Source of the DNA: Methanobacteriota archaeon
GTDB taxonomy: Archaea > Thermoplasmatota > Thermoplasmata > SG8-5 > JAGLSY01
DNA length: 64,000 nt
NCBI GenBank assembly: GCA_020696385.1
Contig: JAEHCQ010000005.1
Span: 27,336-91,335 of the forward strand
Reading direction: 5' to 3'
The notes below the pieces were generated by a model. That model did not search any database, was not told the origin of the DNA, and was given only the letters and a program-made list of their open reading frames with translations. A program made the position numbers and the translations under genes. Of the stretch, positions 4,779-31,796 are shown piece after piece; within the stretch, counting starts at the first letter, position 1; the number at the start of each line of letters is the position of its first letter.

Positions 4779-4793
4779 AACTGGAGCGATAAT

Positions 4794-5561
4794 ATGGCTG
4801 AGAAGTGGAGATTATTATTGACTGGCGATATGGACGCGGCCTCGAACATGGCACTTGATGAGGCCGTGCTCCGGCTGAACAAGGATAAGCATGAGGGGAC
4901 GGTACGCTTCTATTCCTGGAAGCCAAAGGCGATATCCATAGGATATTTCCAGGGAATTCAGGAAGAAACAGATATCGAAAAGTGCAATGCCAGTGGAGTG
5001 GATGTTGTGCGAAGGATAACTGGCGGCGGAGCCGTATACCACGATGATGAGCTCACCTATAGCATCATCGTGAATGAGAAGCATCCCAAGATATCCAACA
5101 ATATCCTGGAATCCTATGGCCACATCTGCAATGGCATAGTTCTCGGCCTGGAAAAACTGGGCATAAGCTCAGAGTTCAAGCCCATCAACGACATAATCAC
5201 GAATGGCAGGAAGATATCCGGAAATGCCCAGACCCGCCGTCTTGGAAATGTACTCCAGCATGGCACAATATTGCGAACAGTGGATGTCAGGACGATGTTC
5301 GACCTGCTCCTTGTCCCGGATGAGAAAATAAGGGACAAGATGATCTCCGCTGTCGAGGAAAGAGTAACATCTATATCAGACATATTAGGTGAACGACTAG
5401 AAAATGATGTAATCCAAAATGCCATGATCGAAGGGTTCTCCGAGGCTCTTGGTGTAGAATTTGATAAGAATTCTTGGTTACCCACATCGGATGAATATGT
5501 TCTTATGGATAAGATTAGGAGAGAAAAATATGGAAATCGTAAATGGAACTTCAAAAGATAA
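4794..5561 (+). CDS. lplA: Lipoate-protein ligase, catalytic domain
   Basis: NMALDEA, VVRRITGGGAVYHD, KPINDI..NGRKISGNAQ, LQHGT. Confidence 0.92.
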   Translation: MAEKWRLLLTGDMDAASNMALDEAVLRLNKDKHEGTVRFYSWKPKAISIGYFQGIQEETDIEKCNASGVDVVRRITGGGAVYHDDELTYSIIVNEKHPKISNNILESYGHICNGIVLGLEKLGISSEFKPINDIITNGRKISGNAQTRRLGNVLQHGTILRTVDVRTMFDLLLVPDEKIRDKMISAVEERVTSISDILGERLENDVIQNAMIEGFSEALGVEFDKNSWLPTSDEYVLMDKIRREKYGNRKWNFKR

Positions 5562-13529: not shown

Positions 13530-13680
13530 ATCAAGCCCATTTCATGTGCTTGATAAAATAGATGCGTGGACTTTGTCCACATCTAAAAAAGAAAAAAGAC
13601 GGACAAATTAAATCAAGCCAGCTGACTTGATCAAAATAAATGCGTGGGTTCAGTAGGTGAAGTCGCATTTAAAAAGAAAG
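13527..13680. mobile_element. Two tandem copies of a double-hairpin dispersed module (third copy at 31476-31568, opposite strand); mobility inferred
   Basis: AATCAA(G/A)C..loop..(G)(C/T)TTGAT-AAAA(T/A)A(G/A)ATGCGTGG..loop..C(GC)AT(C/T)TAAAAA. Confidence 0.6.
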
Positions 13681-13775
13681 TCGCCCGACCCTGCTCACTC
13701 GGTATTGATTGAACCGTAGATTAGTAAATGAGTAAATAAGCAAAATAATTCTATATCCTAGTGCTATTCAACCCC

Positions 13776-14852
13776 ATGAATGTAATTGACCTTGTAGCCG
13801 AGCTTGTTTCTATACCCAGTACACTTGGAAAGACCACGGATATCGAGAACTTCGTGGCTGGCCAGTTATCCGCAATTATCGATACAGAGTTCATCGAGGT
13901 CCCGGGCAAGGGCAGGTGCGTGCTTGCCCGTTCTATCGCGGATGATAAAAAGCCGACCATAATCTTCAATGGGCATCTGGATACTGTCGAGGTGTGCAAT
14001 GGGTGGACAAAGGATCCCTTCAAGCCAGTGATCGAAGGCGATAAGATGTTCGGCCTAGGAACCGCTGACATGAAAGGCGGAGTGGCAGTTGCCATGCTGG
14101 CATTTCAAGAAGCTGTAAGAAGAGGCATCAATGCGATATTTGTCGGGACCATTGATGAGGAAGGAGATTCGGCGGGTGGCTTTGCTATCAAGGATCTGGG
14201 ACTAAAAGCAGATCTGTGCCTGATAACAGAACCCAGCAATGAGAAGATAATGCAGGGCTGTCGCGGCAGGTACGTGGTGGATGTGAACGTGAGCGGAAAG
14301 AGCGCTCACGGAGCTGTGCCCGAGAAAGGGGTCAATGCGATCACAGAGGCTGGCCGCCTGCTCTCCAGATTGGATGAGTTACCCCTAATTCATCATGATG
14401 TTCTGGGAAAGGGTTCCGTATGCCCACTCAGCGTGGGTGGAGGAACCACCACATTATCGGTTCCGGAAGAATGCCGCATTGTCATCGACAGGCATGTTGT
14501 CCCAGGCGAGACAAAGGAAAGTGTGATGCAGGACATACGCAACCTGGCTGGGAAGATAGACAGCCAGGCGACATTCGATGTGGCACTGAACCAGGAAAGA
14601 CCCACACCTTTCCTGGAGCCATATATCACGCAGGATGATGAATTGACGCGCCGATTCATCAGCACAGTCAAAGGCGATATCGCCTACGGGAAGTCAGTAG
14701 GCGATTACAATATATTTGCCACCATGTGCCCCACGATAGTCCATGGGCCAGTAGGGGAGAATTGGCATTCACCAGATGAGTGGGTGTCTATTTCTTCAAT
14801 AGAAAGATGTCTGGAGAACTACATGAGATTCCTTGATGCTTTCAAGGTCTAA
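13776..14852 (+). CDS. M20 family metallopeptidase/deacylase (ArgE/DapE-like)
   Basis: FNGHLDTV, GLGTADMKGG, DEEG, ITEPS, GKSAHGA, HSPDEWV. Confidence 0.92.
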   Translation: MNVIDLVAELVSIPSTLGKTTDIENFVAGQLSAIIDTEFIEVPGKGRCVLARSIADDKKPTIIFNGHLDTVEVCNGWTKDPFKPVIEGDKMFGLGTADMKGGVAVAMLAFQEAVRRGINAIFVGTIDEEGDSAGGFAIKDLGLKADLCLITEPSNEKIMQGCRGRYVVDVNVSGKSAHGAVPEKGVNAITEAGRLLSRLDELPLIHHDVLGKGSVCPLSVGGGTTTLSVPEECRIVIDRHVVPGETKESVMQDIRNLAGKIDSQATFDVALNQERPTPFLEPYITQDDELTRRFISTVKGDIAYGKSVGDYNIFATMCPTIVHGPVGENWHSPDEWVSISSIERCLENYMRFLDAFKV

Positions 14853-16601: not shown

Positions 16602-19600
16602 TTAATTTTTAAATTTCTTAATGTTTATAAGATACATTTCCTCAGTCAAATTACCATCTTTGTAAGCCATCTCTATTTTATCTATGATCTCTTGATTAGG
16701 ATGAGGTGGCTCAGGCTCAATTGCCAGATCATCAGCACAGATCGGGCATTGTAGGCCTGGATCGATCAGGAAACCACAAACTGGGCAGATATTTTCGACC
16801 TCAGTTGCTTGTTCTTCGTATAGATCATCTTCAGATGATACATCTTCATCAAATGAGGCGTCATCTTCGACAGGTCCATCATCTTTATTTTTACGAACAA
16901 ATAGGAATGCCAGGAACAATAATATAATGAGCCAGATCAACATCCCGATGTATATCATCGGGTCTTGGTCCTTTGACACATATTCCTCTACCCCATCTTC
17001 TGTTTCATCCAGGGGAGCAGGGTCAAATTCATCGAGTACTCCGTCATTGTCATCATCAGTGTCTTCATTGTTACCAATGCCATCCCCATCAGTATCTATT
17101 GATTCATCAGCATCAAATGGGAAAACATCATCAATATCTGGAACTCCATCATTGTCATCATCAGGGTCATCCACATCAAGTATACCATCTCGATCATTAT
17201 CTCCATGAACAACAATGATCTCAATTGTCGAGTTTATATTACCGGAATAATCTTCGACCGTGAAAGTGATACGATAAGTTCCAGGGTCTTCAAAGATATA
17301 TGATATATCATTTTGATAATTATCCAGATGACCTGGATAATCAATTGACCAATAACTATTTGCAATTCCAATATTGTCTGTTGAATTTGATCCCCAGAGA
17401 TATGTTGTTTCTCCTTCGATCGTCTCTCTAGGAACATTAATGTCAATATTTGGCTTGGTTGTATCAACTACAAAAAATAGATCTGCATTCATCGGAGGGG
17501 ATTCTTGATTGCCAGATATATCCTCTGCGATAGAATAGAATTGATACCAACCATCATTTGGTGCATTGGCCTCAACATCATAATAATATGAAGGCGTATA
17601 GTTCCATTTTGCATATGTGAAATTATTATGCTCATATTTCCAGTCAGACCAGGTTATATTATCCGCACTGTACCTTGACCATAGGCTTATGCTCTCATAA
17701 TAATAATGTACGGCATAAGAATAATTGATATTGACCATTGTGTTCTGCAAACCACTTGTTGAATCAGTAGCACTCCAAGAAAAATATAGATCCCCAAGAT
17801 CATGCCAGAAATCTTCTTGAAAGGATAGCTTAGACACAGGATCTGAAGTATCAATACAAAGAGATATGGGTGGTTCAGAAGGGGATTCTTCATAATTCCC
17901 TACTACATCACGTGCTACAGAATATAATTGATAGAAGCCATCATTACTTGGCATTTTAAAAGACCAACTACCATTATTTTCCTCCGCATACCTATGTGAA
18001 AAATAATCAGTCCATGTTAGATTGTCAGAGCTACGCCTATAATAAATATTAATTTGATCCAATCCAGTCAAATTATCATGAGCATCGATTGATAGATTAA
18101 ATGAACCATTGTTATGATAATATGGTACAGGAATTATCTCTGAGCTTGGATTCAGGGTATCACGAATAGTCTTTGTCTCTGAACTATTTTTACATATCTC
18201 AAAATTCCCATAATTGTCCTCAGATAAAGAATAGAACTCATAATATCCATCACCTTCAGGGAAGTCAAAAAGCCAATTCCATTGTGAGATAGAATCCTCA
18301 TTATATTGTTTCCAGGGAGTCCATGTAATATTAAATGAGCTATGGCGATACCATAATGTAACATTCTTAAGGCCAAATCCATCCAGATCCTCTGCGGTAG
18401 AATTTATAAGTTCAGACTGAGAGTTAATATATCTGGGAATCGATCGTAAAGATGATGTTGGTTTGATATGATCGTGAACTGGGTTCATCAGTGAATAATT
18501 ATCACTACTAAATGCGGGATAAGAATCGATATCATATCCCGAATCACCGAATCCATCTGAACCGGATATATTCTGACCCGGACCAGACATCAGATCTAAG
18601 CCATCATAGTCCGACCAGTAATTTCCCCCGATCGGGTATATGTTATTCCAATAATTTGTTGAATAATAATCATAGGCACCATAATTATTATCTAAAAATG
18701 AATTATGATAGACCATGTTCCAATCTGAATGAGAGAACATTAAGCCTCGAAAGTTATTCCATATTGTATTGTTGATTATAAAATTATTAAAACAATCATA
18801 TAAATATATCCCATAATATCCATAATTATATGGATACCCATTCCCATGTATCAAATTATTAGATATGGATGAATTTCTCGTACTTTCCATGCATATCCCA
18901 TAATATTCATTTTCTATCGTATTGTTTTGTATTGTAATATTATTCGAATAACCAGCTAATATCCCACAGGATCCATCCATTAATGTGAAGTTCTGAATGA
19001 TCGAATCTGAACAATTCGCTAAAATGATCTGACCTGCATCAGATGGTATATTAACATCAGTTTGGTTTTTAAGATAATATATTGGCAACCCATTGATAGT
19101 ATTATTGATGAATGAATGAGTATTCCAATCCAATATAATATCATTATACCAGTATCTAATCATGATTCCAGTATTTATCAGAACATTGTCTTGGATCAGT
19201 ATATATTTATTGCCGCGGATACCTATACCGACATCATAGTTATCTATTGAATTATTTATTATACTATTATTATTCCCCGGTTTCATAGTGATTCCAGTAT
19301 CCCTTGTTCCAGAAAAGATATTGTTCTGTATTATGTTTCTATCACCCTGGCCTTCGATGGAGGTTTCCATAAAAAGGTTATTTTCAATTACATTATCATT
19401 ACCAGTGAATGAGACACCTCGATAACTATTATGAGCGATCTGGTTATTTACCACAGTATTATTATTCCCAGTAATAATCACTGCGTCCTCTTGATCATAG
19501 AGCTTATTATCAAATATCATAAAATTATCTGAGTTGAAAAGTTGAATTCCATTGGAACAATTCTCAATTACAATATCATTGATCTGACCATTTGTACAGA

Positions 19601-20459
19601 ATCCTAGAATGATGCTGCCGTATGTCTCTGTAAAAGTATAATTGGAGAGCACGACATTCTTGCAATCTGCATATATTATCTGGCCTGGACCAGTTACATA
19701 AGGAGGGGTGTTAGTGTTCTTGAAATAATATATCGGCAACCCTTGAACTAAATTTGTGGTGTAAATATAATGAGTATCCCATTCTTCGACTAAGGTTCCA
19801 TAGATATGAATTCCATTGCTAAGGATATTACCTGAAAATGTATTGTGTTGGGATCGCAACATACGGATATCATCCCAATTGTTGATACTCCACCAATAGG
19901 GAGAAATATGAGTCTCAATCTGATTATTGATGATCAAATTGTAATTGCTTCCATCTAGGAACAATCCATAATATACCGAACTAATTTGATTGTTTTCAAT
20001 AAGGTTATGATCTGAATGAACAGATAGATATATCCCTCTGCTGCAATTATGGATAATATTATTGATAATATCACCATAATCAGTATTCCATAGTTGAATC
20101 CCAGCAGCTTCCCAATATAATCCACTCCAATTAGAATAAGGAAACATCAATGTACAATTTCGGATAATGAAGTTATCTGTCACGTTCCCCAAGTAAATGC
20201 AGGGTCCAAAAATGGTTCCATTGATCTCCCAGTTCTCGATCACCCAGGGATTGCCAGCACTCCCATTCCCACTAGATACTCCATTAGCAAGGGTAAAATC
20301 AGCATTTGAATTTATTCGGATCTCACCGCGAGGTGTAGTTGTAATCACATATGTAGACACATCCTTGGCTTCCGTATTATTAGCATTTGGTTCGGTAAAT
20401 AATATGATGGAACTAAATATCAATAGTACCGATAGCCAAACAGTAAATGCCTTTCTCAT
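16602..20459 (-). CDS. Large cell-surface protein: NosD/PbH1 beta-helix repeats, Ig-like/PKD domains, TSP3-like Ca repeats, TM, Zn ribbon
   Basis: Signal peptide; Asn/Ile-rich NN.I.NN repeats, GGNYWSDY; DNDRDGILD..D.DDDNDG repeats; TM; CPVC..CPIC. Confidence 0.85.
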   Translation of the reverse strand: MRKAFTVWLSVLLIFSSIILFTEPNANNTEAKDVSTYVITTTPRGEIRINSNADFTLANGVSSGNGSAGNPWVIENWEINGTIFGPCIYLGNVTDNFIIRNCTLMFPYSNWSGLYWEAAGIQLWNTDYGDIINNIIHNCSRGIYLSVHSDHNLIENNQISSVYYGLFLDGSNYNLIINNQIETHISPYWWSINNWDDIRMLRSQHNTFSGNILSNGIHIYGTLVEEWDTHYIYTTNLVQGLPIYYFKNTNTPPYVTGPGQIIYADCKNVVLSNYTFTETYGSIILGFCTNGQINDIVIENCSNGIQLFNSDNFMIFDNKLYDQEDAVIITGNNNTVVNNQIAHNSYRGVSFTGNDNVIENNLFMETSIEGQGDRNIIQNNIFSGTRDTGITMKPGNNNSIINNSIDNYDVGIGIRGNKYILIQDNVLINTGIMIRYWYNDIILDWNTHSFINNTINGLPIYYLKNQTDVNIPSDAGQIILANCSDSIIQNFTLMDGSCGILAGYSNNITIQNNTIENEYYGICMESTRNSSISNNLIHGNGYPYNYGYYGIYLYDCFNNFIINNTIWNNFRGLMFSHSDWNMVYHNSFLDNNYGAYDYYSTNYWNNIYPIGGNYWSDYDGLDLMSGPGQNISGSDGFGDSGYDIDSYPAFSSDNYSLMNPVHDHIKPTSSLRSIPRYINSQSELINSTAEDLDGFGLKNVTLWYRHSSFNITWTPWKQYNEDSISQWNWLFDFPEGDGYYEFYSLSEDNYGNFEICKNSSETKTIRDTLNPSSEIIPVPYYHNNGSFNLSIDAHDNLTGLDQINIYYRRSSDNLTWTDYFSHRYAEENNGSWSFKMPSNDGFYQLYSVARDVVGNYEESPSEPPISLCIDTSDPVSKLSFQEDFWHDLGDLYFSWSATDSTSGLQNTMVNINYSYAVHYYYESISLWSRYSADNITWSDWKYEHNNFTYAKWNYTPSYYYDVEANAPNDGWYQFYSIAEDISGNQESPPMNADLFFVVDTTKPNIDINVPRETIEGETTYLWGSNSTDNIGIANSYWSIDYPGHLDNYQNDISYIFEDPGTYRITFTVEDYSGNINSTIEIIVVHGDNDRDGILDVDDPDDDNDGVPDIDDVFPFDADESIDTDGDGIGNNEDTDDDNDGVLDEFDPAPLDETEDGVEEYVSKDQDPMIYIGMLIWLIILLFLAFLFVRKNKDDGPVEDDASFDEDVSSEDDLYEEQATEVENICPVCGFLIDPGLQCPICADDLAIEPEPPHPNQEIIDKIEMAYKDGNLTEEMYLINIKKFKN

Positions 20460-20530: not shown

Positions 20531-20788
20531 ATGCGGGGAACCGTGTGAACGATATGCCCTTGGCATGATGTTCACATCGTAGGCCATAAACCCAATTCTC
20601 GAAGCTTACGTCTTGCTTCGAGTCCAGATGAAACATAATGGTGGGTTTACGGCAACCGTTTACTACTTTCGAATCCTATAATGAAAAATGCGGGGAACCG
20701 GATTTCGCACCTACACTTCATTGCGGTGCTCTCTCGAATTTACAAGTAAATTCTCGATCGAACTTCGTTCGAATCCTATAATGAAAAA
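20531..20788 (-). mobile_element. Two tandem structured units (157 and 100 bp), each ending in a copy of the tRNA-Leu 3' end; mobility inferred
   Basis: 37-bp exact repeat at 20668-20704 and 20768-20804; 13-bp copy at 20531-20543; several internal hairpins. Confidence 0.75.
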
Positions 20789-20872
20789 TGCGGGGAACCG
20801 GATTCGAACCGGCGAATCACTAAGAACTAGACCCTGAATCTAGCGCCGTTGACCAGGCTTGGCTATCCCCGC
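20789..20872 (-). tRNA. tRNA-Leu (CAG)
   Basis: GCGGGGATAGCC...CTAGA-TTCAGGG-TCTAG...GGTTCGAATCC...CCCCGCA; long variable arm; CCA not encoded. Confidence 0.95.
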
Positions 20873-20970
20873 ATGGTGTTATGGATAAGCCCTGTAAATT
20901 CAAGAGGTTTATAAAATCTTTGATTGGATTGTATAATTTTCCGCCGATATCCTTATATCATGAAATTATC

Positions 20971-22014
20971 ATGCCGAATACAATGGCCTCACTTGGCGCA
21001 CTCAAAAGGAGCATGGCTCTCACCCTGATCATGATATTCGGACTTCTGTTCGTGTTCATCATGCTGATATTCGAATTCATGATGTGGTACTACAATGGAA
21101 CTATCAATATTATCGGCCAGCTTATTTTGATATTCTTCTTTGTCGGCATCTTCATGCTCATACAATGGGCGGTCTCCCCCGGTATAATAAGATGGGGGTC
21201 CAAACTTCAGTATCTAAAGCCCGGAGAATACCAGTGGCTGGAGCAGGAAGTTAGTCAATTGTCAAAACAGGCGGATATCCCCATGCCGCGATTGGCCATC
21301 TCCCGAGACCCAACACCCAATGCCTTCGTGTTCGGAAGATCAAGAAAGAGTTCCACACTGACTGTCCACACCGGGCTATTGGAGAAGCTCAATCAGAACG
21401 AGATAAGAGGCGTTCTGGCGCATGAGATAGGACATCTGCGTCACAATGATGTCGTTGTCATGACGGTTGTAAGCGCAATACCCATGCTGGCCTGGATGCT
21501 GGCCCGAAGCTTCCTCTGGGGAGGAAGGCGCAACAGGGATGCTGGTGCGATCATCATAGTTGCCATTATCAGTTATGTGGTCTACTTCATATCCCAATTA
21601 CTTATATTGAAGCTGTCAAGACAGAGAGAGTTCTATGCTGATTCTTACTCGGCTGTCGCTACTGGTGATCCGCACAGCCTCAGCTCGGCACTTGCCAAGA
21701 TAACATTCGGACTATCACTATCAAATGAAAAGCCAGGGGCTGCCAGGGCCTTTTATATCGGGGATCCAGTTAGCGCGAAGAGGGAGATCGCCAGCATCAT
21801 GCAGAATAAGAACAAGTACGATCTGGATGGAGATGGGGTTCTGGACGAAGGAGAGCTACAGAAGGCCATGGAGGAGCAGGCGAAGAGTGGGCGCGCCAGG
21901 ATGGAGTTCATGTCCACCCATCCGTCCACATTCAAGAGGATACTGCTTCTCAAACAGATAGAAACTGACATTGGCCATGGTGGGGCCAATGCGAATATCT
22001 ATGATCATATTTGA
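20971..22014 (+). CDS. htpX: HtpX-like M48 zinc protease with an EF-hand insertion
   Basis: PNAFVFG, VLAHEIGHL, SRQREFYAD, STHP; DLDGDGVLDEGE loop. Confidence 0.9.
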   Translation: MPNTMASLGALKRSMALTLIMIFGLLFVFIMLIFEFMMWYYNGTINIIGQLILIFFFVGIFMLIQWAVSPGIIRWGSKLQYLKPGEYQWLEQEVSQLSKQADIPMPRLAISRDPTPNAFVFGRSRKSSTLTVHTGLLEKLNQNEIRGVLAHEIGHLRHNDVVVMTVVSAIPMLAWMLARSFLWGGRRNRDAGAIIIVAIISYVVYFISQLLILKLSRQREFYADSYSAVATGDPHSLSSALAKITFGLSLSNEKPGAARAFYIGDPVSAKREIASIMQNKNKYDLDGDGVLDEGELQKAMEEQAKSGRARMEFMSTHPSTFKRILLLKQIETDIGHGGANANIYDHI

Positions 22015-22105
22015 TCTTTTATTGTTATACAAAACTCTGTACCAATTTCCTTATATAATTGAATTTACAATATATTCATTTAATAACATTGTGGGAGATG
22101 AGTTC

Positions 22106-22471
22106 ATGTTGATCAAGATATATGCAAGAAGGATAAAGGTCTATACAGGCAGGAAGATGGAGCGCAGGGGAAAGTGGGAAAGATATGCCTGCCATGGTGG
22201 AATGTGGGCCGCAGAGGATGGATTCTTATTATACACAAATGATTTTGACATGATAAGCAGGAAGGCTATCTTGCTTATCAAAGAGCTGGCGGAAGAAAAT
22301 GCACATATTGAGGATATTGAAATAAGAATAATGGACATAATGCAGAACAAGCCAGCTATCAACGCCCTGCTTGATAATATCAAAACGATCCCCACGGTGA
22401 AGATCGGGAAGCACAAGCTGGAGGGTGTCCCCAAGAAAGAAGACCTCAGGAAGGCTTTTGGGAATAGCTGA
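22106..22471 (+). CDS. Hypothetical protein, possibly thioredoxin-like fold without CxxC
   Basis: IKTIPTVKIG...EGVP resembles the thioredoxin cis-Pro region; weak. Confidence 0.5.
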   Translation: MLIKIYARRIKVYTGRKMERRGKWERYACHGGMWAAEDGFLLYTNDFDMISRKAILLIKELAEENAHIEDIEIRIMDIMQNKPAINALLDNIKTIPTVKIGKHKLEGVPKKEDLRKAFGNS

Positions 22472-22535
22472 ACTACCTACAAAATAAATTGTACATACAA
22501 ATAGTTTAATATACACTTGTGTCTGGTCACTATCA

Positions 22536-23242
22536 ATGACATCGATCAAAGATAATGATATAGTATTGGCGATAGAGGATCTGAAGAAGGGTAAGCCAGT
22601 CTTCATCTATGATGCCGATGGGCGAGAGGAAGAGACTGACATCGTCATGGTATCTGAATTTATGAAACCAGATGATATCATGCTGCTCAGAAAGGACGGT
22701 GGAGGGCTTATATGCTCCACCGTGACTGATGAGATAGCAGACAAGATGGGGCTTCCATTCATGGTGGATGTTCTCAGAGGAGCGAAGGCCGAGATGCCAC
22801 TTCTGGAAAGAATGATACCAGACCATCTTCCTTATGATACAAAATCCGCTTTTTCACTGACCATAAATCACAAGGATAATTATACTGGCATCACCGACAA
22901 GGACAGGTCTATGACCGCGTCCGAATTTGGAAAACTAGTAAAGCTTATAGGCGATGATGGTTTAGTTACAGGAAGCGGTGTGGATGAGTTCACCAGCAGG
23001 TTCAGAACTCCCGGACACTTGCATTTGCTGAGGGCGGCCAAAGGTCTTTTGGACAATAGAAAAGGCCACACGGAATTGGCAACAGCTCTTTGTCTGATGG
23101 GAAAAATATCACCATCTGCCACCATCTGTGAGATGATGGGGAATGATGGAAATGCCCTTCAGCGACCAGATGCGATGAAATATGCCCAGGACAGGGGCTT
23201 CATCTATCTGGATGGTAAACAGATAATAGAGGAATGGAAAAT

Positions 23243-23255
<13 letters not shown>
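22536..23255 (+). CDS. ribB: 3,4-dihydroxy-2-butanone-4-phosphate synthase
   Basis: DADGREEETD, GGLIC, TGITDKDR, FRTPGHL, GHTE, ICEM. Confidence 0.95.
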
Positions 23256-24198
<943 letters not shown>

Positions 24199-24292
24199 TG
24201 CAGCCAATATATGATAGTATAAATATAATTCACAATATTAAAATAATAATATTAAATTCAAAGAATAATAAAAAGTAAAGGAGGAGTAAAAA

Positions 24293-24694
24293 ATGAAAAT
24301 AGGAATTGTGGTATCGGAATTCAATTACGACATAACCATGAGTATGCTGGAAAGGGCCAAGGCCCATGCGGATTTCCTTGGCGCGAAGGTCGGAGAGATC
24401 ATCCACGTCCCAGGGGTCTATGATATGCCCCTGGCGGTCAAGAAATTGCTTGCAAAGAAGGATATCGATGGTGTAGCCGCTCTTGGAGCAGTCATCGAGG
24501 GCGAGACAGATCATGATGATGTCGTGATCAATCAGGCCAGCAGAAAGTTGACAGATTTGTCATTGGAATTTGACAAGCCTGTTGGCCTTGGAATAACTGG
24601 ACCTGGCATGTCGAGGCTTCAAGCAGAGGCAAGGATAGAGAGAGCGAAGTCTGCTGTCGAATCCATTGTCAAGATGCACAAAGCATTGAAATAA
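24293..24694 (+). CDS. ribH: 6,7-dimethyl-8-ribityllumazine synthase
   Basis: IVVSEFN, VPGVYDMP, LGAVIEGETDHD, KPVGLG. Confidence 0.96.
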   Translation: MKIGIVVSEFNYDITMSMLERAKAHADFLGAKVGEIIHVPGVYDMPLAVKKLLAKKDIDGVAALGAVIEGETDHDDVVINQASRKLTDLSLEFDKPVGLGITGPGMSRLQAEARIERAKSAVESIVKMHKALK

Positions 24695-24705
24695 ACAATA
24701 GGAAA

Positions 24706-24731
24706 AAGCCAGCCATTTGAAAGGCTGGCTT
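24706..24731 (+). terminator. Hairpin terminator of the rib operon
   Basis: AAGCCAGCC/GGCTGGCTT followed by GTTTTT. Confidence 0.7.
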
Positions 24732-24872
24732 GTTTTTATATTTGCTTAATTTATATTATTGTCTATATAATATTGGATATATTATATTGATTAAATATAT
24801 CTGAATATATATTTAATTCAAATTAATATTAAGATAGCGATGTGGTCGAAAGCCAAATGCCCGATCCCTTAT

Positions 24873-25559
24873 CTATTCCTGAATGACTTCGAATCCATCT
24901 TGATCGAATATCAGTGGGAAGTATCCCCTGGCATGGTTGGATTTTCTCATCTTCGCAACACCCAGGAACAGATTGACATTATTATCATCCCTCTTGAGAT
25001 CAAGGTGAATTATTCCATCACTAAGGAAGTCCTCATCCCGGTTCAGATCACCCTGTCTGCTATCTTCTGAAATAATAAATACAGTAACACCCAGCTCTCT
25101 AAGCCAGCCGAAGAATCTGAATAATTCCGCACGCTTGTTCTTAACATCTGCCATGACCTCGATAGCAGGCAATGAATCTGCAACCAAGATCTCATATTCC
25201 ATGCTGGCCTGGATATTCTCCGCATACATCTTGAATATCCTCATCCAGCTCTGCCCTTCCTCGGATGTGTCCACATTGGATTTCAAATATCCCATGTCCA
25301 CTATATTGACCATGTTCTCCACAGCAATATGATCCATTCCAAGCTCGGCCATATGCTCAAGCAGTGAATCTCGTCCTTGCTCGAGGGACATGTATATCCC
25401 TTTCTTACCTTCCTTTAAAGCGTTTTGATAAAGTATATTGTAGCCTATGGATGATTTCATTGTTCCTGGCTTTCCAGCCAGTAAGACCACGTGGCCCTTT
25501 GGTATTCCACCATTCAATTGCTCGTCAAGTCCCTTTATATAAGTTTTCAAACGTTCCAT
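24873..25559 (-). CDS. KaiC-like/RAD55 RecA-superfamily ATPase
   Basis: TYIKGLDEQLNGGIP, GKPGTMKS, DSL, DGIIHL, KMR. Confidence 0.88.
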   Translation of the reverse strand: MERLKTYIKGLDEQLNGGIPKGHVVLLAGKPGTMKSSIGYNILYQNALKEGKKGIYMSLEQGRDSLLEHMAELGMDHIAVENMVNIVDMGYLKSNVDTSEEGQSWMRIFKMYAENIQASMEYEILVADSLPAIEVMADVKNKRAELFRFFGWLRELGVTVFIISEDSRQGDLNRDEDFLSDGIIHLDLKRDDNNVNLFLGVAKMRKSNHARGYFPLIFDQDGFEVIQE

Positions 25560-25738
25560 GGTATTATCCCCTACTGACGTGGTAAATATCTGTTTGTGTA
25601 TAAATATTATCACCATCATTGACGATCTATTAGCGATATTGATGGATTTCAAAAACCATATTACTCAATAGATGATCTTCATCGCACTCTACCGATTGCA
25701 TAAATACTCCTTTTATATTCCCATTATGAGGTCGTGTA

Positions 25739-26851
25739 TTGGTTCCAGGCTCCAAAAAAAGGCTAATCACCATGTTATTGTTGATGGTGATCGTTTTCAG
25801 CATAGGTAATCTTATCTTCAATGTTGAGAGACTGGACATGGGCGACGAGATAATTCTAGATAACCCAGAAGCAGAGGGAGGGGGATCGTACATAGCCTCC
25901 AGCAGCACGATGGCCGAAACTGTCAGATACATGATGATAGGATTCATGGCCATCGGGATCATCATAACCATAGGCGGTATCGTCTATGGCACAGCCACCA
26001 AAGACAAGGAATTCATGAAATCCATCATGTATCCTCTGATAGGTGGTGGGTTGGCAATCCTGCTCATTGTTGGAACATTCGCCTATCTGGAGATCGAGAA
26101 GAGTGAATACACCCAGAATGAGCTTCTGGAAGAAGGCTATACATCATCCAATAGCACAGGAGGCTCTGGAAATTACACAGAGCCATCAAATGTGAAGCCA
26201 GACGGCATGGACATGGCAGTATCTGTTATGTTGGCCATAGGGGCTGTTGCGGGGATAGCTATTGCCATATTCGCCATCAGCCAGATAACCCAACTCAGAA
26301 CTGAATCTTTATCTGGAATAGATATGGAAGCAATGACCGAAGAAGTGGGGCAAACCATCCAGAAAGCGATGGACGATATGACGAGTGGGACTGATGTCAG
26401 ATCGTCCATAATGAGATGTTACAGTGATATGTGCAAGCTGGCGTCCAAGCATGGCATTTCCGATGAAGAGCATCTGACACCCCGTGAATTTGAATCAATG
26501 GTCGGCTCCAGGCTTCCCATAGAAGATGAGAAATTACATGATCTTATACTGATATTCGAGGAAGCCAGATACAGCGACCATGATCTGTCAGAAGAAATGC
26601 GTAATAAGGCCATTATCGCCCTTGGCAGCATAAAGGACGATCTTGTGATCGAGGAAGAAATAGATATAGAGACAGTAGATGAGATTGAGAAAGTGGATGA
26701 CAAAAAGGTAGAGAAGGATAAGAACAAGAAAATAGAAACGGAGAAGAACAAGAGGATAGAGGGGGAGAAAGACAAGGAGAAAGAGAATGACGATGATCAC
26801 GACACGCCCTCGGTCGTGATGATCCAGGTAGGTGATGATAATGGCAAATAA
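25739..26851 (+). CDS. DUF4129-type membrane protein of the MoxR operon
   Basis: Three to four TMs; RCY..M, HLTPREF, LIFEEARYS; charged low-complexity tail. Confidence 0.8.
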   Translation: MVPGSKKRLITMLLLMVIVFSIGNLIFNVERLDMGDEIILDNPEAEGGGSYIASSSTMAETVRYMMIGFMAIGIIITIGGIVYGTATKDKEFMKSIMYPLIGGGLAILLIVGTFAYLEIEKSEYTQNELLEEGYTSSNSTGGSGNYTEPSNVKPDGMDMAVSVMLAIGAVAGIAIAIFAISQITQLRTESLSGIDMEAMTEEVGQTIQKAMDDMTSGTDVRSSIMRCYSDMCKLASKHGISDEEHLTPREFESMVGSRLPIEDEKLHDLILIFEEARYSDHDLSEEMRNKAIIALGSIKDDLVIEEEIDIETVDEIEKVDDKKVEKDKNKKIETEKNKRIEGEKDKEKENDDDHDTPSVVMIQVGDDNGK

Positions 26852-27536
26852 TAATGAAGCCGCTCTTGACAGATCATCATATGTTTCCACACACGTGGAG
26901 ATCACACCATCCGATACCTTGAAACTTGTTGAGGGAAAGCTGATAGGCGAGAGTTTGCTTGGGCCTACTGGCATTAGGGAATTGTTCATCAATGCCCTGG
27001 TTCTCGTGTTCTATCTGGTCCTGCTTTCTATTCCATTTGTTTCATTTGCCTTTGTCAGTGGGGGGATGAGGTGGATAATTGTTGTCATGGTGGTGACAAC
27101 AATCGCCCTCTACACTGTCTATGTTATGAACATGGGCATCCAGAAGAAGGCATGGAAAAAGACGATCATGGAAAAGAAATACTTCTCGGGTGATCTTTCA
27201 CGAGCGAATGACATAATCACAAGGGGAGCTGGCGGATATAGCTACAGCCAGCAGTTGATGAGAGAGATGATGGCGGAAGCCATGATAGAGAAGATCAGAC
27301 TGGGAAGAGGAATGACCACCAGAGAGATCGAGATGGCCATTGATGAGCCTGAAAGATTCAGGGATATCGTTGATGATGAGATTATAGCGACCTTCATACT
27401 GGCCAATCAGAAAAAGGCAGAGGGATGGAGCGATAGGATCTCCCGAAAGAAGAGTGATCGGGAGAAGACCGAGAGCGGTCGTAAATTCATGTTAGAGATC
27501 AAAGATATATTAGAAAGAGTGGAGGACTGGGAGTGA
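26832..27536 (+). CDS. Membrane protein of the MoxR operon
   Basis: Two TMs; overlaps both neighbouring genes. Confidence 0.7.
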   Translation: MMIMANNNEAALDRSSYVSTHVEITPSDTLKLVEGKLIGESLLGPTGIRELFINALVLVFYLVLLSIPFVSFAFVSGGMRWIIVVMVVTTIALYTVYVMNMGIQKKAWKKTIMEKKYFSGDLSRANDIITRGAGGYSYSQQLMREMMAEAMIEKIRLGRGMTTREIEMAIDEPERFRDIVDDEIIATFILANQKKAEGWSDRISRKKSDREKTESGRKFMLEIKDILERVEDWE

Positions 27537-28483
27537 ATATTAATGAACTGGCAGAAAAGTGCAATGGAATAAAGACGGAGGTGGCCAAGGCCATCGTTGG
27601 AAAGGATGATGTCATCGATAAGGTGATACTGGCCACCCTGGCAAATGGCCACATACTATTCGAGGATTTTCCTGGATTGGCAAAGACCCTATTGGCCAAT
27701 ACATTCTCAAGGGCATTGGGCTGTGGCTTCAGAAGAGTGCAGTTCACCCCGGATCTACTTCCTGCGGATATTACTGGATCATATATCCTGAACAGGCAGA
27801 CCAATGAGTTCGAGCTGAGAAAAGGGCCGGTGTTCACGAACATACTGCTGGCGGATGAGATCAACAGAGCCCCACCAAAGACTCAATCCGCTCTGTTAGA
27901 GGCAATGCAGGAGCGCCAGACGACTCTGGAAGGAGATACACACAAACTACCAGCTCCTTTCATCGTTATAGCCACGCAGAACCCCATCGAGTACGAGGGA
28001 ACATACCCGCTCCCTGAAGCTCAGATAGATCGATTCATAATGCGACTGGATATTGGCTATCCAACTCTCAAAGGGGAAGCCGAGATACTTAGAAGAAGGC
28101 GAACCAGGAAGAAAGAGGAAGTTGACATATTAGCTGTCAGCTCACCTCAGGAGATCATCTCGATGCAGGCGGCCATCGAGGAAGTGCATGTTGAATCAGA
28201 TATAGAGGAATACATAGCACAGATCGTGCAGAACACAAGAAAACACGGTCAGGTGGAGGTCGGAGCCAGTCCAAGAGGTTCACTGGCCCTTATGCAGTTG
28301 GCAATGGCACGTGCGGCCATGAATGGAAGAGACTATGTTCTTCCGGATGACATTAAGGGGATGTGTGTGCCGGCTTTGGCCCATAGAATAATCCTCAAGC
28401 CAGATCCATGGATAAAGGGCATCAAGACAGAGGTCATTGTTGACAAGGTCGTCTCTGATATTCCTGTCCCGAAGGTGAAATAA
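27533..28483 (+). CDS. moxR: MoxR family AAA+ ATPase
   Basis: EDFPGLAKT, RVQFTPDLLPADI, DEINRAPPKTQSALLEAM, ATQNPIEYEGTYPLPEAQ.DRF. Confidence 0.96.
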   Translation: MNINELAEKCNGIKTEVAKAIVGKDDVIDKVILATLANGHILFEDFPGLAKTLLANTFSRALGCGFRRVQFTPDLLPADITGSYILNRQTNEFELRKGPVFTNILLADEINRAPPKTQSALLEAMQERQTTLEGDTHKLPAPFIVIATQNPIEYEGTYPLPEAQIDRFIMRLDIGYPTLKGEAEILRRRRTRKKEEVDILAVSSPQEIISMQAAIEEVHVESDIEEYIAQIVQNTRKHGQVEVGASPRGSLALMQLAMARAAMNGRDYVLPDDIKGMCVPALAHRIILKPDPWIKGIKTEVIVDKVVSDIPVPKVK

Positions 28484-28502
28484 CTGAGATGAGTGAATCT
28501 AA

Positions 28503-29774
28503 ATGAGATCGAGAAAAGGATTCTGGATAGTGGCTTCCGCCATAGCCTGTATAGTCATGGGTGTATGGCTTCGCAGTGGTAGCCTTATTGCCATATCCTT
28601 GCCCCTGATAATTTATCTGGTGGTATCGATCACGATGTTCAAGGACCCCAATTACTCGCTGAATATCAGCCGCTCGATAGATGAGAGCAGGGTGATGACG
28701 GGTGACAATATCCAAGTCACGCTTCATTTGAAGAACACCGGAGCAGCTATCCAGTGTTTGGAGATCGAGGATCTCATCCCGCCTTATGTAAAGGTGTCCG
28801 AGGGAAGCAATAAGGCCATTCTGACACTGAAGGAACTCGAGGAATATGATCTCGAGTATCAGATAGTCTGCCCATACAGAGGAAGGTTTGAGTTCAAGGG
28901 TGTGTGGATCAGAGCAAAGGATTTCATGGACTTCTACACACAACAGATGGAGATCAAGCTTCTGACAACGATCTCTGTCACATCCGAGATAGAATCCTCC
29001 AAGGGACTGAAGATCGCACCCAGAAAGACCAGGAACTGGATCGGCATGATCAAGGCTCGCAGAGTGGGTGTGGGTACCGAGTTCTATGGAATTCGGGAAT
29101 ACATTGCTGGAGACGAGCTCAGAAAGATCAATTGGAAAGCATCTGCCAAACGCGACGTGTTAATGACAAATGAATTCGAGAGCGAGTGCAGTGGTGATGT
29201 CACCATCATGCTCGATGCCAGAACAGAAACGAATGTTGGCAATACAGACAAGAACACGGTGGAACATGGAGTGAGAGCCGCCTCCACGATAGCCTCTCAC
29301 ATACTCATGGACAAGAACCGTGTTGGACTTATTGTATTGAGGGACATAATCGACGAGGTATATCCTGCCTTTGGGAAGAGGCAGTATTATCGCATCTCTG
29401 AAAAGCTGATGGATGTCCAGCCAGGAGGGAGCATGCCCTTTGATGATGCTCGCTGGATGGTGACCCGGCATTTCCCACTTGAATCACAGATAATCGTCAT
29501 AAGCCCGCTTGTGGATTACAAGATCGTGCAGAGCATCGCGGATCTCTGTGCCAGAGGGTATGACGTAGTAGTTGTCTCGCCATCTCCGATCAAGGTCGAG
29601 GGGCAGATAATCGAGGCCTCGAATGAGTTGGAAATGGCCAAGAACCTGAAGAGATTGGAAAGAGACAATCTCATTTCAGAACTATATCGATATGCCAGGG
29701 TGGTGGATTGGGATCCATCAGAGCCACTGGCAAAAGCATTGAAGGGGGTGGAAAGATTAAGAGCGAGGTTCTAG
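28503..29774 (+). CDS. DUF58 domain protein
   Basis: EFYGIREYIAGDELRKINWKASA, MLDAR. Confidence 0.92.
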   Translation: MRSRKGFWIVASAIACIVMGVWLRSGSLIAISLPLIIYLVVSITMFKDPNYSLNISRSIDESRVMTGDNIQVTLHLKNTGAAIQCLEIEDLIPPYVKVSEGSNKAILTLKELEEYDLEYQIVCPYRGRFEFKGVWIRAKDFMDFYTQQMEIKLLTTISVTSEIESSKGLKIAPRKTRNWIGMIKARRVGVGTEFYGIREYIAGDELRKINWKASAKRDVLMTNEFESECSGDVTIMLDARTETNVGNTDKNTVEHGVRAASTIASHILMDKNRVGLIVLRDIIDEVYPAFGKRQYYRISEKLMDVQPGGSMPFDDARWMVTRHFPLESQIIVISPLVDYKIVQSIADLCARGYDVVVVSPSPIKVEGQIIEASNELEMAKNLKRLERDNLISELYRYARVVDWDPSEPLAKALKGVERLRARF

Positions 29775-30436
29775 AGGAACAGACAGACTATGAAACTGAA
29801 ATATCTGTTGATGGATATTCCACCCTCGGAACAAATGGACATGCCAAGCCAGGTATCAATCCCATGGCCATCATTTCCCTTTCCATACTTATTTGCCTGT
29901 CAATGTGGCATCTTCTGCAAACATATGAAGCAGGAGCGGATATGAATGATCATATTACCGCAATAGCATTGAGCATTATCATTGGTGTGACTGGCCTTTT
30001 CATAAATGTTCCAGGAAAAGGAGAGTTGAGAGATTACCTGACAAACAAGCTGGAGCGCAATCGCCATCTATTGTTGGGCATCTCCTGTGTCATAATGGGA
30101 GGCATTCATTTCATGACATTCGCAAAGGCGACTGACATCGTGCCCATGTTCGGCTTCATGGTCATGCTGATCGCCTATTATGACCTGGGATCATTGGCCA
30201 TCCGTACCGCGCCTTATTTGATCCTGAATGATACGAATGATAGCACCAGGCGGTTCATAAGATACTCGGGAGGCAAGATACTTGTAGCCCTCGGGATCAC
30301 CTTCCTCATGTCCACATTCATGCTGTTCATATCCCTCATGGGCATAATTGGATTTACAGGGGTCTGGACTGTTCTTATTCTGGCAGCCATGCTAATGGGA
30401 TCACTTGGCATGATAGTCCGGTCTGGCAATGTGTGA
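29708..30436 (+). CDS. Multi-TM hypothetical membrane protein (start uncertain)
   Basis: About six hydrophobic segments; last gene of the operon. Confidence 0.65.
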   Translation: MGSIRATGKSIEGGGKIKSEVLEEQTDYETEISVDGYSTLGTNGHAKPGINPMAIISLSILICLSMWHLLQTYEAGADMNDHITAIALSIIIGVTGLFINVPGKGELRDYLTNKLERNRHLLLGISCVIMGGIHFMTFAKATDIVPMFGFMVMLIAYYDLGSLAIRTAPYLILNDTNDSTRRFIRYSGGKILVALGITFLMSTFMLFISLMGIIGFTGVWTVLILAAMLMGSLGMIVRSGNV

Positions 30437-30515
30437 ATTCGGTAAACACAATAGTTTTCGGTAAGCCGAAATTTATATATACACAATTATCATTAGGTAA
30501 ATTGCAGGTGAGAAT

Positions 30516-31304
30516 TTGGAAAGCGTGACATTCGCATTATTACTGACCACCATAGCGGGTCTATCCACTGGATTGGGCGGAGCAGTCGTACTGCTACAGA
30601 AAAAGCCCAATAAAACCCTCCTCACCTTTTCCCTGGGGCTTTCAGCCGGGGTCATGGTATATGTTTCTTTCATGGAGCTTTTACCCGATGCGATCGAGGG
30701 CATTGGAGAGGTTGCTGGCATACTGGCCTTCTTCGTCGGAGTTATGTTCATAGCTCTGATCGATGCCCTTCTACCGAAACAGCTGAATCCTCATCATTTC
30801 AGCAGGATCACTGGCAGAAAATGTGAAAAGAAAAAGAAGAGAAGTGAAGCAGAATGCCGCCTAATGAGGGTGGGCACCTTCACAGCAATTGCCATAACGA
30901 TCCATAATTTCCCAGAGGGAATAGCGACCTTTAGCGCGAGCCTGACGGACATCAGACTTGGGATGGTCATTGCCATCGCGATAGCCTTACATAATATTCC
31001 AGAGGGCATCTCGGTAGCCGCCCCCATATTCGCAGCCACAGGTGATAAGATCAAGGCCTTCAAGTACGCCTTTCTATCTGGAATAGCAGAGCCCATTGGT
31101 GGTATATTCAGTTTTATCGTGCTCTACAATTTCATGTCTGATTCCCTTTTGGCAGGATTACTGGCCTTTGTGGCTGGAATAATGATCTACATATCTCTTG
31201 ATGAGATATTACCCACAGCCCATAGCTATGGCAAGAGCCATGTTGTGCTGGCAGGTGTTATGCTGGGTATGTTCATAATGGCAATGAGCTTACTTATGTT
31301 GTGA
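30516..31304 (+). CDS. zupT: ZIP family zinc transporter
   Basis: AITIHNFPEG, IALHNIPEGISVAAP, SLDEILP. Confidence 0.95.
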   Translation: MESVTFALLLTTIAGLSTGLGGAVVLLQKKPNKTLLTFSLGLSAGVMVYVSFMELLPDAIEGIGEVAGILAFFVGVMFIALIDALLPKQLNPHHFSRITGRKCEKKKKRSEAECRLMRVGTFTAIAITIHNFPEGIATFSASLTDIRLGMVIAIAIALHNIPEGISVAAPIFAATGDKIKAFKYAFLSGIAEPIGGIFSFIVLYNFMSDSLLAGLLAFVAGIMIYISLDEILPTAHSYGKSHVVLAGVMLGMFIMAMSLLML

Positions 31305-31398
31305 ACTGCCAGATATCCTGAAAATTTCCATAGATATTATGCACAAATCTAAACCAAGCTTTTATTATGGGTATTGCATTCTCGATAAAATTACCAAA

Positions 31399-31473
31399 GG
31401 GCGCGTAGCCTAGCCAGGATATGGCGCTAGCCTTCTAAGCTAGAAGCCAGGGGTTCGAATCCCCTCGCGTCCG
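31399..31473 (+). tRNA. tRNA-Arg (TCT)
   Basis: GGGCGCG/CGCGTCC acceptor stem, CTAGC-CTTCTAA-GCTAG anticodon arm, GGGGTTCGAATCCCC T arm. Confidence 0.95.
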
Positions 31474-31700
31474 CTCTTTTATTTTTTTAAGATGCGACTT
31501 TATCATTTGATCCCACGCATCTTTTTTATCAAACAAATTTGTAAAAGATTCAGGTAATGAGTTTGATTCGATATGTTTAGAGGACGCGAGGTGGATGAGA
31601 ACGGAGTTCGACGAGATTTTTCTGAATATAATGAAGAAAAAGCGAGCAAGACCTGGATGCTGAAAGCAGACAGGTTGCTGATCCCCTCGCGTCCGCTCTT
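31474..31700 (+). mobile_element. 222-bp structured unit ending in a direct copy of the tRNA-Arg 3' end; mobility inferred
   Basis: atcccctcgcgtccgctctt at 31459-31478 and 31681-31700; inverted degenerate copy from 31582; double-hairpin module at 31476-31568. Confidence 0.75.
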
Positions 31701-31796
31701 ATTTTATTATCTTAATAAATGCGAAGTGTTGTAAACAAAACACTTATCTATTCTCTTTTGATTACTATACTATAGTTAATCCAGGGATGGACCTTA

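Follow-up and report, generated by a model that had tools for sequence, protein, structure and literature searches.

We analysed a 64-kilobase (kb) stretch of DNA (the window) from an uncultured Thermoplasmata archaeon, within which ARAGORN calls two transfer RNA (tRNA) genes, one for leucine and one for arginine. Both are followed by small non-coding units, each of which ends in a copy of its preceding tRNA's 3′ end, and which seem to be a new family of very small insertion cassettes that have no integrase. The tRNA-Leu locus was compared across seven genomes, designated A (the window) to G, and the tRNA-Arg locus across A, B and C; loci of the relatives were retrieved by means of the proteins that flank tRNA-Leu and tRNA-Arg. 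At the tRNA-Leu locus, the window holds a mini unit and a long unit:

20788-20873, minus strand: tRNA-Leu(CAG), intact and without an intron (ARAGORN; Rfam tRNA model, 49.6 bits).
20789-20803, minus strand: repeat copy 1, the last 15 nucleotides (nt) of tRNA-Leu.
20758-20787, minus strand: 5′ part of the mini unit, read directly as the trailer TTTTTCATTATA and then the fold-back.
20758-20776, minus strand: fold-back, GGATTCGAAC-GAA-GTTCGA.
20704-20757, minus strand: body of the mini unit, 54 nt.
20736-20753, minus strand: hairpin 1 of the mini unit.
20707-20729, minus strand: hairpin 2 of the mini unit.
20689-20703, minus strand: repeat copy 2 of the tRNA-Leu 3′ end, 15 nt, ATCCGGTTCCCCGCA.
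20532-20676, minus strand: long unit, 145 nt, with the 5′ motif GGATTCGAA and the 3′ end ACGGTTCCCCGCA.
20532-20543, minus strand: repeat copy 3 of the tRNA-Leu end, which closes the long unit.

The body of the Leu mini unit ends in GGTGCGAA, a sequence similar to the 5′ half of a T-arm. The tRNA end and its trailer, including GGATTCGAA, form a perfect direct repeat of 36 nt (20768-20803 and 20668-20703), and GGATTCGAA starts the long units as well as being part of the 5′ portion of the Leu mini unit. Both the third copy of the tRNA-Leu end and the 145-nt long unit had been missed by the initial annotation of this DNA. At the tRNA-Arg locus, a mini unit stands behind a spacer module:

31399-31474, plus strand: tRNA-Arg(TCT), intact (ARAGORN; Rfam).
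31459-31478, plus strand: repeat copy 1, the last 15 nt of tRNA-Arg and CTCTT.
31490-31572, plus strand: spacer module, 83 nt, between tRNA-Arg and the mini unit.
31582-31611, plus strand: inverted copy GGACGCGAGGTGGATGAGAAC with GGA-GTTCGA.
31599-31611, plus strand: fold-back, GAAC-GGA-GTTCGA.
31612-31680, plus strand: body of the mini unit, 69 nt.
31617-31641, plus strand: hairpin 1 of the mini unit.
31646-31678, plus strand: hairpin 2 of the mini unit.
31681-31700, plus strand: repeat copy 2, ATCCCCTCGCGTCCG (15 nt, 31681-31695) and CTCTT.
31356-31707, plus strand: entire cassette of promoter, tRNA-Arg, module and mini unit.

The inverted copy GGACGCGAGGTGGATGAGAAC (31582-31602) matches tRNA positions 53-72 in reverse complement, apart from an additional T and two mismatched bases, and pairs with 31681-31694 in a stem of 14 base pairs (bp).

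The exact motif GAACGNAGTTCGA has two sites in the 64 kb, one behind tRNA-Leu and one behind tRNA-Arg, and each GAAC-GNA-GTTCGA is followed by 15 nt that repeat the respective tRNA 3′ end perfectly. With up to two mismatches, the motif has 10 matches in the window compared with 2.7 ± 1.5 in shuffled sequences. As the exact motif occurs only behind the two tRNAs and a second public contig (L013) carries a Leu array identical to that of the window, chance and assembly error are excluded; homologous units also occur in independent assemblies of other genomes. The fold-back elements that the initial annotation described behind both tRNAs are real, with its sequences confirmed, and they belong, as it proposed, to discrete non-coding units tailored to the host tRNA. 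The units are bounded by tRNA 3′-end copies, and close relatives differ in whether they have them.

Behind an occupied tRNA gene stand one to three folded units, with a copy of the last 12-15 bases of that tRNA at the end of each. Unit sizes range from 88 to 178 nt (about 90-180 bp), with no coding remnant. The tRNA-Leu(CAG) locus differs between genomes as follows:

Genome A (window): mini unit and long unit.
Genome B (GCA_020697715.1): mini unit, long unit, module and long unit.
Genome C (ERZ23498405): gap of 100 N and two long units.
Genome C, version in a metagenome-assembled genome (MAG): one long unit.
Genome D (Logan SRR15671255): nothing behind the tRNA.
Genome E (GCA_054043565.1): module and mini unit.
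Genome F (Logan SRR22936141): nothing behind the tRNA; the tRNA itself is interrupted.
Genome G (JGI 3300023196): one long unit.

Genomes D and G share flanks, but G has an additional 178 nt, bounded by the 12-nt direct repeat CGGTTCCCCGCA; the Leu locus thus exists in an empty and an occupied form, with a precise junction. At the Arg locus of B, a mini unit lies 24 nt behind the tRNA, with no module, and in C one assembly has a second 3′-end copy past a gap and the other has no unit. The ENA scaffolds of C contain 100-N gaps exactly at the expected places of the mini units (L133 863-962 and L140 10871-10970), and the NCBI MAG of the same sample (L134 and L141) is shorter, lacking an Arg unit and carrying a single Leu long unit. 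These differences reflect either assembly collapse or real heterogeneity of the population.

Unit ends track the tRNA that they follow. Leu units end in CCCCGCA in A, B, E and G and in CCCTGCA in C, in which the acceptor pair of tRNA-Leu is altered on both strands, the 5′ strand compensating; Arg units end in GCGTCCG in A and B and in GCGCTCG in C. The Leu mini units are 94-97% identical across three genomes (95% for A and B, 97% for A and E) and have identical boundaries despite different neighbours. Nucleotide identity of ftsY, by comparison, is 87% between A and B and 76% between A and E, and the 80 nt upstream of tRNA-Leu are only 56% alike in A and E. Because the Leu mini unit is closer in the more-distant pair, simple vertical descent does not fit; the identity between A and E points to recent spread or to very strong constraint. 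The Arg mini unit is around 83% identical between A and B, compared with 87% for ftsY, which suggests roughly neutral divergence. At both loci, the cassette of promoter, tRNA and units is inverted between relatives with colinear flanks: at Arg in A relative to B and C, the alignment showing ZIP and M14 genes colinear on either side, and at Leu in A, B and E relative to C, D, F and G (cassettes at window 31356-31707, L139 10797-11060 and L148 3360-3690).

Long units share a conserved fold. In the RNAalifold prediction, an 8-bp hairpin (P2) lies within a 12-bp helix (P1), and a composite hairpin (P3) comes after them; their places in the window are as follows:

20643-20653 with 20583-20593, minus strand: helix P1.
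20598-20622, minus strand: hairpin P2.
20545-20575, minus strand: composite hairpin P3.

A covariance model of this fold finds every tRNA-linked long copy at 85-166 bits, with the window copy at 162.7 bits. Across eight long copies, 95% of cells are paired, and in 16 of the 37 pairs both partners have changed; the observed values were not reached in any of 500 shuffles, and slid controls gave 0-4 double-change pairs. Taken alone, a single long-unit sequence yields the same fold (z = -4.0). The compensatory changes in three helices place the long unit under selection, and the excess of G·U cells (22) over A·C cells (6) assigns the fold to the tRNA-sense strand. The repeat that closes a long unit is 12 nt in length and corresponds to tRNA positions 62-73.

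Long-type copies also occur away from tRNA genes:

L150 4664-4797 (genome F): 70.8 bits, just upstream of the promoter region of an M48 gene; absent from the same site in C.
L148 1358-1523, minus strand (genome E): 41.5 bits.
L133 5640-5777 (genome C): weak match.

These copies are intergenic, score lower and lack a tRNA-end repeat. All long copies, including the dispersed ones, carry a T-arm-like GGATTC, GGGTTC or AGTTC at a fixed distance before P1. Given a larger member with a conserved three-helix fold and copies away from tRNAs, the units are more than attachment sites, and the suggestion of the initial annotation that they are attachment-site-only elements needs revising.

The mini units of Leu and Arg have a common layout, in which a closing stem pairs the 5′ motif with the tRNA-derived 3′ end and, together with the small GAAC/GTTC hairpin and two further hairpins, makes a four-way junction. 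Their repeats span the same tRNA positions, 59-73, in two different tRNAs, and the interruption falls at 58/59 in the T-loop. Fold stability varies: in the window, z is -1.7 for the Leu unit and -7.7 for the Arg unit, whereas the Arg unit of a relative has z = -0.7. Covariation, which the initial annotation had proposed as a check, is strong in the long unit and amounts in the mini units to a single double change, from C-G to T-A, in hairpin 1 of the Leu mini unit of B; the remaining changes lie in loops or in hairpin-flanking sequence. The case for selection on the mini-unit fold is thin. A GNA triloop is present in both window units, as reported; in the Arg unit of B, the triloop is AGG and the long Arg stem is weaker, so neither feature is conserved. 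Likewise, the inserts begin with CGAGA or TCGAGA, as described, but also with TGAGA. The covariance model of the long unit matched the mini units weakly (18.5 bits, E = 0.014), and a re-run on a short stretch found nothing.

In the initial annotation, each mini unit was a copy of the tRNA 3′ end split in the T-loop by an insert. The sequences are as stated, but they can be parsed in two ways, of which such a split T-loop is one. When a unit is aligned locally to its tRNA, the best alignment does not jump over the insert: the Leu alignment runs on (GGTGCGAAATCCGG compared with GGTTCGAATCCGG), a contiguous, slightly mutated T-arm copy (GGTGCGAAATCC compared with GGTTCGAATCC) directly adjoins the repeat, and the long units likewise have GTTCACA-CGG ahead of it. 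As these alignments continue contiguously upstream of the repeat, the 3′ part of the unit can be read as one contiguous, slightly mutated tRNA copy from about position 52, with changes in the T-loop, in which case the upstream palindrome would be a separate T-loop-like site. Other identities were considered for the mini units and rejected. For C/D-box small RNAs (sRNAs), the box spacing of the inserts is unsuitable; as pseudo-tRNAs, the units are not called by ARAGORN or by the Rfam tRNA model; and as bulge–helix–bulge introns, the inserts, on inspection of the folds, lack an outer T-stem and have bulges out of register.

The explanation that we tentatively prefer, and which we consider possible but somewhat short of probable, is that the units are non-autonomous cassettes that a recombinase, supplied in trans, inserts into tRNA genes at the segment from the T-loop to the 3′ end, and that the long type, if not both, carries a structured RNA. 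Insertion would set a cassette directly behind the tRNA, with the last 12-15 nt of the tRNA copied at the far end of the cassette. Tandem arrays would then be extended or trimmed by repeated insertion, by loss or by unequal exchange between repeats. The cassettes, which encode no protein, would be moved by a recombinase encoded elsewhere, in the simplest case a tyrosine integrase with specificity for the T-loop or 3′ end. We infer that T-arm-like motifs in both orientations may be its recognition sites: GGATTCGAA(C) at the 5′ end and, preceding the repeat, GTTCGA, GTTCAC or GGTGCGAA. The long cassette, at least, would additionally form a structured RNA or a single-strand fold on the tRNA-sense strand. 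If the units are indeed mobilized in trans, they would be the smallest known site-specific insertion units at tRNA genes, and the long unit would represent a new family of structured-RNA or single-strand elements.

Several observations weigh against this explanation. The long-type copies away from tRNAs have no tRNA-end repeat, so that either insertion is not strictly bound to tRNAs or these copies have decayed. Homologous mini units stand at two different tRNAs and are each matched to the one that they follow, which under a simple integrase model would require switching of attachment sites; a mechanism of target duplication would explain the matching more directly. A pure DNA recombination model has no need of the three-helix fold, and the ‘empty’ Arg allele of C could be an assembly collapse. 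Searches of the window, of the array flanks and of viral, phage and plasmid collections found no recombinase, no circular form and no parent element bearing an attP site. Viral contigs contained no match to either tRNA 3′ end, and blastn of the Leu array against plasmids and phages had no match. In a genome collection, the pattern GAACGNAGTTCRAN{0,1}CGAGA, which is too loose, matched at least 118 loci, all of them chance among the matches listed; in a metagenome collection, GGATTCGAACNNNGTTCGAN{0,2}GAGA gave five chance matches with no tRNA nearby.

Concerning the window itself, the initial annotation was right that it holds no recognisable integrase, and the tested open reading frames (ORFs) of at least 100 amino acids are also devoid of transposase, Cas1, TnpB and reverse transcriptase domains. 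Genes flanking the arrays in B, C and F contain no recombinase domain either. The fold-back pattern had 12 matches in viral contigs, all chance. In Rfam, at the gathering threshold or with E values up to 10, only the tRNAs match, and there is no family for the units.

It is unlikely, in our judgement, that the units are instead chromosomal, non-mobile sRNA genes, whose structured RNAs would borrow a T-run and the 3′ end of their tRNA in order to terminate or to be processed at the 3′ side, and which would change in number by local tandem duplication and by deletion between repeats. The strong covariation, sense-strand G·U bias and fold stability of the long unit are what such genes would show, and a T-run follows every repeat copy. 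A/T-rich, TATA-like boxes stand about 20-25 nt upstream of GGATTC in C, in G and in module-preceded units; however, in A and B the box directly adjoins the unit, which makes the start site inconsistent. Moreover, the units are dispensable between close relatives, the mini-unit folds are no better than shuffled sequences in two of three cases, the Arg mini unit has diverged almost neutrally, and the excess of A/E over A/B identity (97% and 95%), although A and B are closer kin, is a misfit with vertical descent. The lack of a matching Rfam family also counts against this reading.

We likewise doubt that the units are inert fossils, that is, attR-type displaced 3′ parts of tRNAs from past integrations of plasmids or viruses, trimmed by deletion, in which the interruption would be what is left of the element or of an earlier T-loop intron; this reading follows the model of Sugahara et al. 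(2012; PMC3293823), in which an intron-carrying att site exchanges with a tRNA gene. Identical mini-unit boundaries and 94-97% identity in three genomes are unlike the outcome of random deletion, the long unit is under selection with compensatory changes in three helices, and no remnant of an integrase gene lies beside the arrays examined. Nevertheless, repeats of the tRNA 3′ part with T-arm similarity that decays upstream are a classical attachment-site (att) signature (PMC3293823), and the inversion of tRNA cassettes between relatives at both loci is in keeping with such a past. Genome F, which has a T-loop intron and no units where C has units and no intron, agrees with it too, but the mini inserts lack a bulge–helix–bulge in the right register and bear no evident sequence likeness to that intron.

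The intron of F, a sister genome of C, interrupts tRNA-Leu(CAG), which reads ...CCGGTTCGAA / 35 nt / TCCGGTTCCCTGCA:

L150 2865-2984: tRNA-Leu(CAG) gene of F, with an intron at 2935-2969, between positions 59 and 60 in the T-loop.

The 35 nt form a hairpin, with a near-canonical bulge–helix–bulge and a 4-bp central helix (UUCG/CGGA). Its two bulges are in register, which places the cuts exactly after A59 and before U60. ARAGORN calls a tRNA-Leu(CAG) once the intron is removed in silico; with the intron, the gene is missed by both ARAGORN and the Rfam tRNA model, such that a T-loop intron conceals a tRNA gene from standard finders. This intron is the closest natural counterpart of the mini-unit interruption; inspection by eye found no evident sequence similarity between it and the mini-unit bodies. 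A more far-reaching idea, which we regard as rather improbable, is that the units are an active and hitherto undescribed class of mini-cassettes, dependent on a recombinase or mediated by RNA, that home to the T-loop and 3′ end of archaeal tRNA genes, and that exchange between unit and tRNA would put the interruption into a real T-loop; C and F would then have caught intron gain in the act. The contrast between C and F offers a population-level test of whether mobile elements seed archaeal tRNA introns, and the units may be relevant to the old question of where the introns and fragments of archaeal tRNA genes come from.

We consider it very unlikely that the long unit is the non-coding end of a miniature element of the IS200/IS605 type, with a guide-RNA-like scaffold and the flanking tRNA 3′ end as guide. 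Dispersed copies at unrelated intergenic sites with differing 3′ flanks, a structured scaffold immediately upstream of a single-stranded tail that equals the flank, and a TTC-containing motif 5′ of all copies would suit it. However, transposition of IS200/IS605 elements produces no target duplication, whereas repeats of 12-15 nt bound these units and the tRNA is intact; the 5′ motif belongs to the conserved interior of the element and is no flank, and neither TnpA nor TnpB is encoded in the window or beside any copy. Slightly less probable still is insertion by a casposon-like or other transposase with the repeat as a 15-bp target-site duplication: mini-unit repeats do cover positions 59-73 in two different tRNAs, and casposons of relatives of the Thermoplasmata use a T-loop guide in tRNA, 14-15-bp duplications and tandem stacking (PMC5137440 and PMC4779613), but the units lack terminal inverted repeats, the window lacks Cas1, the repeat of the long unit is 12 nt rather than 15, and a casposon duplication overlaps the tRNA by about 4-5 bp and extends downstream, whereas here the repeat lies inside the tRNA.

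Returning to the preferred reading of trans-mobilized cassettes, we compared the units with named systems. Archaeal integrative plasmids and viruses with integrases of the SSV and pNOB8 types similarly leave the 3′ part of the tRNA as direct repeats behind an intact tRNA, T-arm similarity that decays upstream of the perfect repeat, and a locus that varies between close relatives; the 2012 model has tRNA introns gained through such elements (PMC3293823), and here a sister genome has an intron in the same part of the tRNA. Unlike those elements, the units have gene-less intervening DNA of about 70-165 nt, are discrete and conserved, and include one type with a selected fold; there is no integrase in the window or array flanks, and no parent element was found. 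Archaeal bulge–helix–bulge tRNA introns share with the mini units an interruption in the T-loop (58/59 in the units, 59/60 in the F intron), but the mini-unit interruptions stand in partial tRNA copies without an outer T-stem. Tested for a helix, a 3-nt bulge, a 4-bp helix, a 3-nt bulge and a helix, L150 2935-2969 conforms and the mini units do not.

Integron cassettes, some of which are also without ORFs and have a folded attC site, are likewise small, promoter-less units stacked at one fixed site, with a recombination-site-like repeat closing each unit, structure more conserved than sequence, and arrays that differ by strain. In attC, the R″ and R′ core sites, RYYYAAC ... GTTRRRY, lie in one bulged hairpin. 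The TTCGAAC and GTTCGAA of the units are off this consensus, and the long unit has three helices instead of a single bulged hairpin; the units are also anchored at a tRNA gene, and IntI is not encoded in the window. In bacteria, cis-mobilizable elements (CIMEs) are flanked by att sites, lack integration genes and accrete in tandem at the 3′ end of a target gene by means of the recombinase of another element (PMC5704250). The units, too, keep flanking att-like sites, have no integration genes and stack at one target. They differ in being archaeal, about 100-180 bp in size and free of gene remnants, whereas CIMEs are decayed bacterial integrative and conjugative or integrative and mobilizable elements of kilobase size.

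Casposons (those of Aciduliprofundum boonei and Methanosarcina mazei) resemble the units in having the T-loop region within the target, repeats of about 14-15 bp and possible stacking. They were rejected because the unit ends bear no inverted repeats, the window contains no Cas1, and the repeat is placed differently relative to the tRNA end (positions 59-73 or 62-73); PolB is missing as well. Miniature inverted-repeat transposable elements were rejected because the unit ends lack terminal inverted repeats together with a short, fixed target duplication. For every family compared, the units lack what defines it, and they are therefore not members of any named family. In this comparison, their behaviour appears most like that of att-flanked, integrase-less accreting elements such as CIMEs and ORF-less integron cassettes, and, if mobilized in trans, they would be an archaeal parallel to one or the other. 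Such arrays also disrupt assembly, with gaps in scaffolds and collapsed contigs in MAGs as the result.

The spacer module of the Arg locus consists of the hairpin AGATGCG..CGCATCT, a T-run, the hairpin ATCAAAC..GTTTGAT and TCGAT, in that order. It is absent from the Arg locus of B and precedes units elsewhere, with 95% identity between B and E:

L014 9468-9535 (genome B): module copy.
L148 3463-3530 (genome E): module copy.

The module is a dispersed intergenic repeat, of which two tandem copies lie on the minus strand at around 13530-13690 of the window, downstream of the ORF at 13751-14095, with no tRNA nearby. The right junction of the Arg cassette in the window carries a hairpin, AAGTGTT-GTAAACAA-AACACTT (31724-31745), the left arm of which is missing in B.

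The closest kin of the genes in the window are from uncultured Thermoplasmata of the SG8-5 or Proteinoplasmatales kind. The neighbours are ordinary archaeal housekeeping genes, including those for an M48/HtpX protease, FtsY, riboflavin synthesis, KaiC-like and MoxR-like ATPases, a ZIP transporter and an M14 peptidase. A variable region adjoins the tRNA-Leu array, and the gene at its far end is different in every genome compared: a 1285-amino-acid beta-helix/PKD surface protein in A (window 16602-20459, minus strand), ORFs of 147 and 76 amino acids in B (L014 8771-9437), and proteins of 408-424 amino acids in C and F (L133 1403-2629 in C). No Pfam match was found for the far-end ORFs of B, C and F. 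Upstream of the M48/HtpX gene, several genomes have a conserved TTTCCGCCGA(C/T)A(G/T)CC followed by TTATAT, which is probably a promoter or regulator site:

Window, about 20920-20945: M48/HtpX upstream motif.
L133, about 2940-2965: M48/HtpX upstream motif.
L150, about 4790-4815: M48/HtpX upstream motif.

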